Origin: Planctomycetota bacterium
GTDB lineage: Bacteria > Planctomycetota > MHYJ01 > WSZJ01
DNA length: 64,000 nt
Assembly: GCA_038060895.1 (NCBI GenBank)
Contig: JBBTCT010000034.1
Location: 56,951-120,950, forward strand
Reading direction: 5' to 3'
How positions within the stretch are numbered: the stretch's first letter is position 1; each line of letters begins with the position of its first letter. Both the position numbers and the translations under genes were made by a program. The notes under the pieces were generated by a model that saw only the letters and a list, made by a program, of their open reading frames with translations, was not told the origin of the DNA and did no database searches. Positions 43,523 through 47,600 of the stretch are shown here, piece after piece.

Positions 43523-44182
43523 TTACTTCGGCTGCGGCACCACCCTCAAGTACGGCTTCACCGTCTTCCAGCCGCCCGGGTACTTCTGCTTCGCCTCTTC
43601 GTCCGTCACGGCGGGCACGATGATCACGTCGTCGCCCTGCTTCCAGTTCACGGGGGTCGCGACCTTGTGCTTCGCGGTGAGCTGCATCGAGTCGAGGACG
43701 CGCAGGACTTCGTCGAAGTTCCGGCCCGTGCTCATCGGGTAACTGAGCATCAGCTTGATCTTCTTGTCCGGCCCGACCACGAACACCGTCCGCACCGTCG
43801 CGTTGGTCGCCGCCGTCCTGCCGTCGCAGGTCGTCCCGGCGTCCGCCGGCAGCATGTCCCACGCCTTGGCGACCTTCAACTCCGGGTCGCCGATCATCGG
43901 GTAGTCCACCATCGAGCCCTGCGTCTCCTCGATGTCCTTCTTCCACCTCTCGTGGCTCGCAACCGGGTCCACCGAAAGCCCGATCACCTTCGCGTTCCGC
44001 TTCGCGAACTCCGGCGCCAGCTTCGCCATGTATCCGAGCTCAGTCGTGCACACGGGGGTGAAGTCCTTCGGGTGCGAGAAGAGGATCCCCCAGCCGTCGC
44101 CAAGCCATTTGTGGAACTCGATCGGGCCCTGGGTGGTCTCGGCGGTGAAGTTCGGGGCGTCGTCGTTGATGCGCAGGCTCAT
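43523..44182 (-). CDS. 1-Cys peroxiredoxin (Prx6 family)
   Basis: FSHPKDFTPVCTTEL, YPMSTGRNFDE, VATPVNW. Confidence 0.95.
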   Translation of the reverse strand: MSLRINDDAPNFTAETTQGPIEFHKWLGDGWGILFSHPKDFTPVCTTELGYMAKLAPEFAKRNAKVIGLSVDPVASHERWKKDIEETQGSMVDYPMIGDPELKVAKAWDMLPADAGTTCDGRTAATNATVRTVFVVGPDKKIKLMLSYPMSTGRNFDEVLRVLDSMQLTAKHKVATPVNWKQGDDVIIVPAVTDEEAKQKYPGGWKTVKPYLRVVPQPK

Positions 44183-44322
44183 GGCTGGTCTCCTTGATGG
44201 GGCGGCGCGGGTTGCGCGTGAAGGGTCACGCTTGTAACCGAAAGCGGGGTTCGCTTCCACGACTTGTACAGGAAGAAGTCCGGCTTCGGCAGCGCCAAGG
44301 ACCCGGCGGTATGATCATCGCC

Positions 44323-44982
44323 ATGTCACACGCCGCCGGACATCGCAAGCCTGGTCACACGCATCGCGGCGGCGGACCTGCCCACCACGGCCACTCCTTC
44401 GCGGACGTCGAGAACTGGGTCGCCCGCTTCGAGGGCCCGGAGCGCGACGCCTGGCAGAAGCCCGAAGAGGTCGTGCGCGCCCTCGGGCTCGCGCCGGCGG
44501 CCCGCGTCGCCGAGATCGGCGCCGGCACGGGCTACTTCGCGGTGCGGCTGGCGCGGGCCGTTCCCCGCGGCCAGGTCTGGGGCGTCGACCTGGAGCCCAA
44601 CATGGTGCGGCACCTGGAAGCGCGCGCGGCGCGGGAGGGATTGGCCAACCTGACCGCCGCGTTGGCGAGCGCCGAGGACCCGCGCCTGCCCGAACCGGTG
44701 GACGTCCTGCTGGTGGCCAACACCTACCACCACCTTGAAGCGCGTCCGGCGTACTTCGCCCGGGTCGCGACCGCCCTTGCGCCCGGCGGGCGGCTCGTCA
44801 TCATCGACTTCAGGAAGGGCGACCTGCCCGTCGGTCCGCCCGACGAAATGAAGCTCGCCCCGGAGGTCGTTCGATCCGAACTCGAGTTGTCGGGCCTGGT
44901 TCAGACCGCCGAGGAATCGTTTCTGCCGCACCAGTACTTCCTCGTATTCCGGAAGCGCTCGCCGCGGACGGCTTCTCCGTAA
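44323..44982 (+). CDS. Class I SAM-dependent methyltransferase
   Basis: RDAWQKPEEV, VAEIGAGTGYF, NTYHH, LPHQYFLVF. Confidence 0.9.
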   Translation: MSHAAGHRKPGHTHRGGGPAHHGHSFADVENWVARFEGPERDAWQKPEEVVRALGLAPAARVAEIGAGTGYFAVRLARAVPRGQVWGVDLEPNMVRHLEARAAREGLANLTAALASAEDPRLPEPVDVLLVANTYHHLEARPAYFARVATALAPGGRLVIIDFRKGDLPVGPPDEMKLAPEVVRSELELSGLVQTAEESFLPHQYFLVFRKRSPRTASP

Positions 44983-45074: not shown

Positions 45075-45206
45075 ATGAAGAAGCTCCCGCTTCCGATCCT
45101 GCTGGCCCTCGCCGGATGCGCGAACGACGCCCAGGTCGCGCAGACGCGGCCCCCAACGTCCAAATATTGTAAATTTCGTAAGATTGGGGGGCTCCGGTCG
45201 ATATGA
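45075..45206 (+). pseudogene. Short lipoprotein-like ORF (43 aa), probably a 5' remnant
   Basis: MKKLPLPILLALAGC lipobox, then runs into an AT-rich promoter-like region. Confidence 0.4.
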
Positions 45207-45261
45207 TGCCGGGGCGTTCAACGACATTATCCGATAGCGGAAAGTCCCTAAGGAGAAATCA

Positions 45262-46020
45262 ATGAGGACGTCTCAGCTCGGGTACCTGGGGTTCCTGGCG
45301 GTGCTGCTGGTTGCCAGCGCACCCCGTCCTGCCGAAGCGGGCTGATGCCGCAAGGCGCGTCCACGTCTGACGTGGTACGAGCCTATTGAAACAAGCCTCC
45401 GTGAAGAGGTTTCAGCGACGGGCCCCGGTGCGACAGAAATCCCCGAGGAGATTCGCAACGAGTTCGGGCTGACGTACTGGGAAAAAGACAACCAGAAGCC
45501 GGGGCTCATCTATTTCTACTGGTCCGATTCTTCGGACCCGCGCGGCAAGAAGAGCCAGGCCTGGAATCGGGATCTCTTTGACACCGAGGACGTGGCCCGC
45601 GCTTCGAAGCACTTTCTCTGCCTCAAGGTCGACGGCGCGAGGCAGGATGCGGCGCTCCTGAAGAAGCGCGGCCTGGATCCGGCGAAATTGCCGGCGCTCG
45701 TCGTGACCAGCCCCACCGGTAAATTTGTCTGCATCCTTCCCGAGGTGAAGAGCAACGTGGCGCTGAAGGACGCCCTCGAGGAGGCCGTGGCAAAGCACTT
45801 TCCGGCGCTCTGGAAGTCGTACGATCAGGTTTACCTGGAACTCGAGAAGCTGCTGGATGCGGCCCGCGAGGACTACAAGAAGAACAACTACGAGGCCGCC
45901 CTCGAGAAATTGACCAAGGTCATCGAGAATCCGGTGCGCACTTCCCTGATCGAGCGCGCGGAGGAGTTGCAGGATGTCGTCCGGACCAAGCTGGACAACC
46001 TGGACCGGAAGCAGAAGTAA
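45262..46020 (+). CDS. Putative exported selenoprotein, 252 aa, mature N-terminus Gly-Sec-Cys, thioredoxin-like fold plus helical tail; TGA 45343-45345
   Basis: AAGGAG RBS, signal peptide ending AEA, then GGC-TGA-TGC. Frame stays open to TAA 46020 and joins ORF 45592..46020. Confidence 0.8.
45354..45383 (+). promoter_or_regulatory. Candidate bacterial SECIS hairpin
   Basis: GGC-G-CGT-CCACGT-CTG-ACGTGG-T-ACG-A-GCC: long stem with a bulged U, apex about 21 nt after the TGA. Confidence 0.65.
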
Positions 46021-46037: not shown

Positions 46038-46077
46038 CGGGCCGGGCCGGCATTCGTCGGCCCGGCCCGTTCTTTTT
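46038..46077 (+). terminator. Rho-independent terminator
   Basis: CGGGCCGGGCCGGC-ATTC-GTCGGCCCGGCCCG followed by TTCTTTTT. Confidence 0.85.
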
Positions 46078-47150: not shown

Positions 47151-47600
47151 CTATTTCGAAGCAAACCGCCACTTGCCGTCCACCTTGACCATCCGGAACT
47201 TTTCGCCCTCGTCCTCTTCCTTCCCGTCCTTCATCTTGAATTTCATTCTCGTGGCAACCTCCGCCTTGTCGCCATCGACCTTGATGTCGGCCTCGTTGAA
47301 TGAAATCGTGATGGTCATGCCGTCCTTCTTCATCTCGTCGATTTCCTTCTGCATCTTCCCTTCCTTCCACGCCTCGACCGTGTAGCACGCCTCGAACTTG
47401 GCGGGGTCCATCGATGCGAACGCTTCCTGAAGCGCCTTCATCGCACCCTGGGGCGTGGACATATCCGGTCCGGAAGAGCCTCCTCCGCCGCCGGAGGTGC
47501 CGCCCGTGTTGCCGGTACCGCCGGAGTCGTCCTTGCCGCAACCGCCCGCGAAAACCGTCAAGGCCATCACCAGTGCGGCCAGCGTGCATGTCTTCAGCAT
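47151..47600 (-). CDS. Lipoprotein with NTF2-like (DUF4878-like) domain
   Basis: Lipobox-like AGGC, Gly-rich linker, C-terminal MVKVDGKWRF. Confidence 0.75.
   Translation of the reverse strand: MLKTCTLAALVMALTVFAGGCGKDDSGGTGNTGGTSGGGGGSSGPDMSTPQGAMKALQEAFASMDPAKFEACYTVEAWKEGKMQKEIDEMKKDGMTITISFNEADIKVDGDKAEVATRMKFKMKDGKEEDEGEKFRMVKVDGKWRFASK

Follow-up and report, generated by a model that had tools for sequence, protein, structure and literature searches.

A 64,000-nucleotide (nt) stretch of a Planctomycetota bacterium genome assembly (GCA_038060895.1, contig JBBTCT010000034.1, positions 56,951 to 120,950 of the forward strand; the whole stretch is called the window here, and position 1 is its first letter) contains, at positions 45262-46020 of the forward strand, a gene predicted to encode an exported selenoprotein in which selenocysteine (Sec, U) and cysteine stand side by side near the mature N-terminus. 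A ribosome-binding site, AAGGAG (45250-45255, +), lies 6 nt upstream of the ATG start codon, and the first 26 codons (45262-45339, +) encode a signal peptide ending in A-E-A. The sequence G27-U28-C29 follows (45340-45348, +), with U28 encoded by an in-frame TGA (45343-45345), and then R-K-A-R-P-R-L-T-W-Y-E-P onward. The frame downstream of the TGA is open for 224 codons up to a TAA stop (46018-46020, +), and with the TGA read as U the gene specifies a protein of 252 residues. An intrinsic terminator (46038-46077, +) lies just beyond, composed of a 14-base-pair (bp) stem with 13 G-C pairs and then TTCTTTTT, the stem and T run together occupying 46038-46069. The original prediction had drawn attention to the strong ribosome-binding site, the signal peptide followed by G-TGA-C and the gene's own terminator, and all of these are recognizable here; its count of 225 open codons after the TGA should be 224. 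It had also pointed out that the list of open reading frames (ORFs) omits the first 110 codons. This is so because the first ATG, GTG or TTG past the TGA is the GTG at 45592, there being none across 82 codons, and a plain ORF list consequently shows only the last 142 residues.

Three close homologs are available for comparison with the window gene: L012 and L013, from metagenome-assembled genomes of the same Planctomycetota genus, and L044, on a metagenome contig. A search of genome contigs with alignment A1 returned L012 and L013 only; a first metagenome scan for relatives gave no match, and a second gave one new close homolog, L044. Their proteins are 78-82% identical to the window protein across all 252 residues, and each gene has a single TGA, located at codon 28. 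The junction G-U-C-R-K-A-R-P-R-L-T-W-Y-E-P and the flanks of the TGA are unchanged in all four, residues 29-41 being invariant. Among the four genes, codons 2-27 have 5, 6 and 15 variable sites at first, second and third codon positions, and codons 61-252 have 33, 30 and 79, as compared with 39 of 45 and 43 of 45 variable sites in ungapped flanks outside the gene. This third-position bias on both sides of the TGA points to purifying selection on both sides, in one frame. Initiation of translation after the TGA is thus not plausible: there is no start for 82 codons, the residues that come next after the TGA do not vary in any of the four sequences, and the signal peptide evolves in the same frame as the rest. 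The TGA at codon 28 is almost certainly decoded as selenocysteine, judging from these comparisons together with the family pattern, the downstream hairpins and the Sec machinery described below.

More distant relatives, at 22-32% identity, were found by six-frame search in 45 of 401 genomes sampled across the phylum. The 30 best loci and L044 were read with stops translated through, and copies of the domain were located with a hidden Markov model built from alignment A4, giving 36 thioredoxin-like domain matches in 32 loci. There are 34 genes with a readable N-terminus, a count that excludes one copy cut at a locus edge and copy a of L016, whose start is ambiguous. An in-frame TGA directly follows the hydrophobic signal peptide in 32 of these 34 (29 Planctomycetota genomes and one metagenome contig are represented); the other two have a single Cys (L031, the same as P0039) and neither Sec nor Cys (L036 copy a). 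The original prediction required homologs to keep TGA or Cys at this position, and they do so, with 32 TGA genes against one with Cys only and one with neither. Each of the 32 TGA genes, moreover, pairs its Sec with another Sec or a Cys 0-4 residues away. The most frequent arrangement is U-C (14 genes, 13 after Gly and one after Gln), followed by U-G-U (seven genes: L017, L018, L022, L025, L027, L029 and L032), C-U-G (four) and U-G-[GS]-G-R-C (four); U-U (L037, with adjacent in-frame TGAs in the context G-U-U), C-G-G-G-G-U and C-T-U-P-C are represented by one gene each. The TGA stays in frame across these 32 genes even though they share only 22-31% identity, and this includes the pairs of TGAs that are adjacent or separated by one codon. 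In P0039/L031 and P0036 the place of the Sec is taken by a lone Cys, a form that is rare (one of 34 genes in the loci read). Most of the distant members also have a Gly-rich linker between the dyad and a conserved P-R-L-T-x-[FW]-x-W strand, which is absent from the window subfamily. Two family genes adjoin or lie near one another in the genomes of L016 (G282:C149), L036 and L040; at L016 and L036 one copy has a Sec dyad, and the other either lacks it (L036) or is the copy with the ambiguous start (L016).

These proteins are represented in public databases almost exclusively as fragments. A word-indexed database search returned 11 proteins of 142-210 residues, all 11 of which begin past the TGA position, and an exhaustive search of 1.84 billion representatives yielded 32 at E <= 0.001, most of them likewise starting downstream. 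A profile word search with alignment A6 gave 15 matches, all of them truncated Planctomycetes hypotheticals. The names given to relatives are only 'hypothetical protein' or 'TPR repeat protein', and every entry seen is 5'-truncated. A scan of the window genome for a signal peptide followed by G-[UC/CU/UGU/UU/UG] and 120 open codons, made to see if the arm is a reusable N-terminal tag, recovered this gene and one unconvincing match, on contig C31, and no other gene of that genome has such an arm. From their sequences, the Planctomycetota genes very probably encode a family of exported selenoproteins, hitherto undescribed, that pair Sec with Cys or a second Sec at the start of the mature chain, ahead of a thioredoxin-like domain without its usual active site.

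Bacterial selenocysteine insertion sequence (SECIS) elements lie 16-37 nt from the UGA (PMC10778597) and have a small apical loop containing G (PMC10778597, PMC1088965). A SECIS-like hairpin, whose 13 base pairs are interrupted by a bulge and a mismatch, is predicted by folding at 45353-45384 (+) in the window gene, its apex (45367-45369) lying 24 nt past the U of the UGA and within this range. The sequence GUCUG occupies offsets 22-26, and the likeness to the Escherichia coli fdhF element noted in the original prediction holds in position as well as in sequence: in fdhF of E. coli MG1655 the GGUC loop has its first nucleotide at offset 21, and GUCUG is at the identical offsets 22-26. The two differ in that the minimum-energy fold of the window gene places G22 and U23 in the top of the stem, leaving a loop of CUG or UCUGA. 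The window stem has two substitutions among the four close sequences, both of which keep pairing (A-U to G.U and G-C to G.U), and the other changes are in the loop. A second hairpin, with a 7-bp stem and a 6-nt loop CGUGAA, is predicted about 50 nt past the TGA (45393-45412, +), and is near-invariant in all four close homologs, the sole stem change being G.U to A-U.

When the best simple hairpin within 66 nt after the first UGA was taken for each gene of the wider family, a frequent form, seen in at least eight members, had on a 5-9 bp stem a GGUC tetraloop that starts 19-30 nt past the U of the UGA, at a distance similar to that of the fdhF loop. The stems are wholly different between subfamilies, and GUC occurs in differing reading frames and amino-acid contexts. 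A hairpin with a stem of at least 5 bp and a loop of 4-7 nt containing GUC, starting 16-37 nt after the UGA, is present in 17 of 23 genes, as compared with 1.79 expected from dinucleotide shuffles (maximum 5 in 300). Alignment A5 contains 17 NGUC tetraloop hairpins, 15 of them distinct, in which the five inner pairs form in 13-15 of 15 sequences and G-C/C-G swaps are common (9 versus 6, and 11 versus 4); its covariation score is 0.663, as compared with 0.219 +/- 0.055 for shuffles, none of 500 scoring as high, and sliding the partners gives 0.12-0.26. In the U-G-U members the dyad is encoded as TGA-GGC-TGA, and one GGUC-type hairpin lies about 27-30 nt past the first UGA, as it does in the U-U member L037. 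These relatives differ from fdhF in that a single hairpin follows two UGAs, 6 nt apart in seven genes and adjacent in one. A scan of the whole window against Rfam at gathering thresholds gave no match, a result of low weight since the presence of a bacterial SECIS model in Rfam is not established.

The original prediction depended on the existence of a Sec machinery, and this is present. The window genome (G000; 5.4 Mb in 47 contigs, 86.5% complete) has SelA, a SelB winged-helix domain, and a tRNA-Sec scoring 71.7 bits that ARAGORN calls as tRNA-SeC with anticodon TCA. Its SelD gene has one in-frame TGA (S-C-A-G-U-A-S-K), behind which a 6-bp hairpin carries a GGC loop at a distance of about 21 nt, and the organism thus demonstrably holds standard-type selenoprotein genes. 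Of the 401 genomes sampled from the phylum, 304 have a SelA match, as do 28 of the 29 genomes with a TGA member of the family; in the twenty-ninth (G158, 92% complete, 340 contigs) there was no SelA match and there is a tRNA-Sec of 68.8 bits. The SelD protein (L045; G000:C2:48628-49548, -) begins ...F-S-K-A-R-P-R-L-T-D-M-S-S-C-A-G-U, and shares K-A-R-P-R-L-T with the window protein, where it comes after the U-C dyad (45349-45369). The DNA encoding the shared peptide differs at five of seven third codon positions, indicating no recent copy, and the resemblance may reflect chance or a common binding motif.

The start of the window protein has the features of an exported protein: a positive n-region, a hydrophobic core (mean Kyte-Doolittle 2.55 over 12 residues) and A-E-A ahead of G27, where a signal peptidase I site is predicted. 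Members of the UC and CU subfamilies have A-x-A ahead of the Gly, and those of the UGU subfamily have A-[FWY]-G ahead of the first U; by the -3/-1 rule both patterns would suit cleavage by signal peptidase I, with the dyad ending up at mature positions 1-3. Lipoprotein signal peptides end in a lipobox, with the consensus L-[AS]-[GA]-C. The window protein has P-A-E-A-G-U-C at this place, with Glu at -3 relative to U, and a lipoprotein was rejected given the missing lipobox, this Glu and the signal peptidase I pattern. We consider with high confidence that 45262-46020 is one gene for one exported 252-residue selenoprotein, in which UGA 28 would be decoded as Sec through SelB and tRNA-Sec under the guidance of the hairpin at 45353-45384, and which would be cut by signal peptidase I after A-E-A to give a mature protein starting G-U-C.

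The body of the protein is predicted to contain two domains. An AlphaFold2 model made with a 25-sequence alignment (A2) has a mean predicted local distance difference test score (pLDDT) of 86.9 and a predicted template modelling score of 0.77, with pLDDT of 49-54 in residues 1-30, 82-86 in residues 31-50, and mostly above 90 in the rest. Residues 38-177 (45373-45792, +) form a thioredoxin-fold domain of the DsbD-gamma / Thioredoxin_7 type, identified from the model and by fold search. The best fold match is the DsbD C-terminal domain 1vrs_D (VIA Z 12.4, root-mean-square deviation [rmsd] 2.5 over 113 residues), which Foldseek also matches at E 2.5e-4 (TM 0.68 on the target), and a Bacteroides cytochrome c biogenesis-related domain, 3f9u_B, scores Z 11.7. 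The thioredoxin core without an active-site Cys that had been proposed from the sequence is thereby confirmed as to fold, and no CxxC, UxxC or CxxU is found: alignments A2 and A4 place a degenerate W87-S-D-S-S91 (45520-45534, +) at the thioredoxin WCxxC position, and most relatives have W-P-H-x-D there. In a profile alignment to the disulphide isomerase 3fk8, the second active-site Cys aligns with a Cys kept in many distant members. Scans against Pfam and NCBIfam (release 20) identified no family above cut-off for the window protein or for 25 family members, among which one gave Thioredoxin_7 at E 0.037.

Two residues of this domain are strongly conserved. Cys120 (TGC, 45619-45621, +), in the strand H-F-L-C-L-K-V-D, is the sole Cys invariant across Sec-bearing members (22 of 22 in A4, 21 of 21 in A6); it is missing from two non-Sec relatives, P0039 and P0019. 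Aligned to E. coli thioredoxin, it presumably lies beneath the active-site position. Pro144 (45691-45693, +), directly before the strand at 145-149, is conserved in at least 90% of the A2 and A4 sequences and from this and its position in the model is a candidate cis-proline. The C-terminal domain (residues 181-251; 45802-46017, +) is modelled as three long TPR-like helices. The likeness to TPR is weak (Pfam TPR_21 at E 0.043, and profile matches to designed TPR proteins), and the VIA Z values of 9-9.8 over 58-70 residues are in the range common for helical pieces.

The genes surrounding the selenoprotein gene vary. Upstream in the window are a 1-Cys peroxiredoxin gene (AhpC-TSA and 1-cysPrx_C domains; 43523-44260, -) and a methyltransferase gene (44194-44982, +), and the downstream neighbor encodes a DNA-alkylation-repair-like protein. 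At L012 a peroxiredoxin gene (722-1354, +; 88% identity) is immediately upstream on the same strand as the selenoprotein gene, opposite to the orientation in the window. A peroxiredoxin gene is upstream at two of the four close loci, with none within 1.5 kb at L013 and L044, and the adjacency may be local synteny only. Elsewhere in the family, ClpC/McsB adjoins two UGU-type loci, and xanthine-dehydrogenase-type genes adjoin three UC-type loci of one family. Two small ORFs near the window gene have lipoprotein-like starts: a 43-codon candidate (45075-45206, +) beginning M-K-K-L-P-L-P-I-L-L-A-L-A-G-C, with a lipoprotein-type signal and the lipobox L-A-G-C, and a 149-residue ORF (47151-47600, -) with ...F-A-G-G-C-G-K-D-D-S-G-G and a Gly/Ser-rich stretch, which matches no Pfam family.

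Because Sec is always accompanied by a second chalcogen within 0-4 residues, the dyad is expected to act as a two-atom center, either forming an Se-S or Se-Se bond or providing a bidentate ligand pair. If the former, adjacent Sec and Cys would close a reversible selenenylsulfide, as would the C-U pair of the C-U members, and the U-G-U and U-U relatives would form a diselenide. The dyad would then be a short mobile redox arm in the periplasm, an N-terminal counterpart of the C-terminal arm of animal thioredoxin reductase, for which the CxxC-less DsbD-gamma-like domain, with its proline loop and Cys120, could provide a docking and resolving platform, and the TPR-like tail could hold a partner or substrate. 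The chemistry would probably be the reduction of peroxides, disulfides or polysulfides, the arm being re-reduced by a periplasmic reductant pathway. The gene structure, the conserved Sec dyad, the SECIS-type hairpins, the Sec machinery and the fold are shown by the data; we infer the cleavage site, the Se-S bond, the contact of the arm with Cys120 and the nature of the substrate. Four considerations favor a redox arm: small rings can be closed at the UC, CU and UGU spacings; C-U-G preceded by Gly matches the thioredoxin reductase motif; the body is a thioredoxin fold of the periplasmic reductase type that has kept its proline loop; and Cys120 goes with the arm, being present in 22 of 22 Sec-bearing members aligned and missing in two of the non-Sec relatives. 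The full proposal, an exported Sec-dyad selenoprotein working through such an arm, seems to us slightly favored. Considered by itself and from sequence, the mobile Se-S arm as the mechanism falls a little short of an even chance.

Several observations count against this interpretation, some touching the decoding of the TGA and others the function of the dyad. The window hairpin is suggestive and alone not significant (101-nt fold z = -1.99, with 10 of 200 shuffles equally stable); its stem has only wobble-preserving changes and no double compensatory change among four sequences; the loops of the three closest homologs are GCUGA or GCUCA, without GUC; and synonymous-site conservation in codons 29-52 is not significant (13 of 17 versus 86 of 150, p = 0.10). 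The criteria for the family hairpins and for covariation were set post hoc on data already seen, from sequences that are mutually related. SelA is so widespread (304 of 401 genomes) that finding it alongside the family is consistent with this reading but discriminates little. The placement of the arm in the model is unreliable, residues 21-30 having a pLDDT of 49, and the window protein and its subfamily have Trp100 where the second CxxC Cys of 3fk8 aligns. No conserved neighbor or operon partner, such as a reductase, was found across the family, the flanks differing between lineages and among the four close loci. Finally, the majority of the distant members have H-W-P-H-x-D at the site of the lost CxxC, which resembles a metal site as much as a redox site.

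This last feature leads to the principal competing explanation, that the protein is a true exported selenoprotein in which the dyad is a ligand pair for a soft metal or metalloid (Cu(I), Hg, Cd, Ni, As, Se or Te), and which serves as a periplasmic metallochaperone, scavenger or sensor instead of a redox catalyst. Sco-type copper chaperones likewise have a thioredoxin fold, the UC, UGU, UU and U-x4-C spacings suit chelation and ring closure equally, and the His residues of the majority of distant members, together with one or two Cys at the CxxC place, would make a plausible His/Cys/Sec site. Furthermore, Haft and Gwadz (bioRxiv 10.1101/2022.07.06.499078) interpreted the adjacent CU and CC motifs of several new bacterial selenoproteins as ligands for metals. 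However, the window subfamily lacks both His and the extra Cys (having W-S-D-S-S and W100), metal-resistance or transport genes are not conserved beside the gene where flanks were compared, and neither the window protein nor the 25 members match the NCBIfam models of CU-type metal selenoproteins; we regard a metal-binding role as less likely than the redox arm, with real weight left to it. A role for the Sec or Cys as a covalent attachment site, for a lipid or through a selenoether or thioether to an envelope component with the Gly-rich stretch as a tether, is suggested by the lipobox-like ends and Gly runs of the non-Sec P0036 (V-L-A-C-G-G) and P0039 (A-P-S-C-G-G-G-G-G), and by the Gly-rich linkers that are common behind the dyad. 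It is the least credible of the explanations: in the window protein G-U is preceded by E at -3 and A at -2, with no Leu at -3, the A-x-A before G in the UC and CU subfamilies is typical of signal peptidase I, no Cys whatever lies near the cleavage site in the UGU subfamily, and the window subfamily has no Gly linker; elsewhere, G-rich SECIS stems account for part of the Gly-rich stretch.

There is likewise very little probability that the TGA is a true stop, ending a 27-codon leader ORF ahead of a separately translated protein, or marking a pseudogene. Public gene calls do start downstream, as seen in all 11 database proteins, and the window hairpin is individually matched by 10 of 200 shuffles. 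Yet the 82 codons without ATG, GTG or TTG include the invariant residues 29-41, the thioredoxin fold begins at residue 38, well ahead of the GTG at 45592, and the downstream product would be an exported-type domain deprived of a signal peptide. The signal peptide itself evolves as coding sequence in the same frame, and the in-frame TGA is kept in 32 genes at 22-31% identity. A true stop was accordingly rejected from the missing post-TGA start, the conserved junction and the family-wide TGA. The reading that we prefer is of an exported selenoprotein with an N-terminal Sec dyad, most plausibly a redox arm.

Animal thioredoxin reductase has a C-terminal Gly-Cys-Sec-Gly redox arm, and the analogy to it made in the original prediction is strengthened by the four C-U-G and seven U-G-U homologs. 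In both cases vicinal Cys and Sec are on a flexible, Gly-flanked chain end, the arm being unstructured and of low confidence in the window model, and the C-U-G of the four relatives follows Gly or Gln. Unlike that of thioredoxin reductase, a pyridine-nucleotide disulfide oxidoreductase, the arm here is N-terminal, is part of an exported protein and has the order U-C in the window gene, and there is no flavin domain or partner dithiol center, but a CxxC-less thioredoxin body. The DsbD-gamma / Thioredoxin_7 folds (1vrs_D, 3f9u_B, 2kuc and 3fk8) are the best structural matches and share the periplasmic location and proline loop, but the window protein differs from them in having no CxxC, in its added N-terminal Sec dyad and C-terminal helical domain, and in sequence, which is below family thresholds (Thioredoxin_7 E 0.037, 3fk8 E 0.011). 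E. coli YbbN/CnoX also combines a degenerate-site thioredoxin fold with TPR-like helices (3qou is at Foldseek rank 9, E 6.5e-3), but superposes poorly overall (rmsd 9.6 over 173 columns). YbbN is cytoplasmic and is not known to contain Sec. The CU-motif selenoproteins SaoB, SaoL, SaoC and HgcA (Haft and Gwadz 2022) and MbdU (PMC13188914) are similar in their adjacent Cys-Sec, in being typically truncated at the TGA in databases, and in that some are exported; they differ in fold and context and are from anaerobes with conserved operons, and their NCBIfam models match 0 of 25 members.

Selenoproteins with thioredoxin folds, and selenoproteins with Cys-Sec dyads, are already known. Not known before are the placement of a dyad at the N-terminus of a fold lacking CxxC, the scarcity of Cys forms, the double-Sec versions (UGU and UU) and the Planctomycetota-wide spread. 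Among the 119 prokaryotic selenoprotein families of a 2026 compilation (PMC13188914, Table 1), none brings together a signal peptide, a dyad at the N-terminus and a thioredoxin fold devoid of CxxC, and Planctomycetes are not mentioned in the text of that paper or of the deep-Sep paper (PMC12013277). A description of the family was not found in the literature, a search whose coverage did not extend to the entries of BSepDB (PMC13326102), nor to PMC4807772 Table S9 (selenoprotein candidates in two planctomycetes) and PMC12013277 Table S2, which might list a member.

We propose, tentatively, that this is a Sec-obligate exported family in which a detachable dichalcogenide arm at the N-terminus, Se-S or Se-Se, has taken the place of the thioredoxin-fold CxxC, with some members inserting two Sec (UGA-GGC-UGA or UGA-UGA) by way of one fdhF-like GGUC hairpin. 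If this is true, it would represent a new catalytic layout for the thioredoxin fold, together with a natural, closely spaced double insertion of Sec in bacteria that is widespread in Planctomycetota and invisible to present annotation. The UGU and UU members pose the question of how a single SECIS serves two neighboring UGAs, and because the GGUC hairpins are fdhF-like, testing expression in E. coli is realistic. Since Cys homologs are rare, searches for Cys/Sec pairs would miss the family, and if confirmed it would be a selenoprotein family overlooked entirely by standard pipelines, with relatives in about a tenth of the sampled Planctomycetota genomes. It would also offer a natural test bed for the preference of selenium over sulfur in a vicinal dyad, and a bacterial parallel to the thioredoxin reductase arm.

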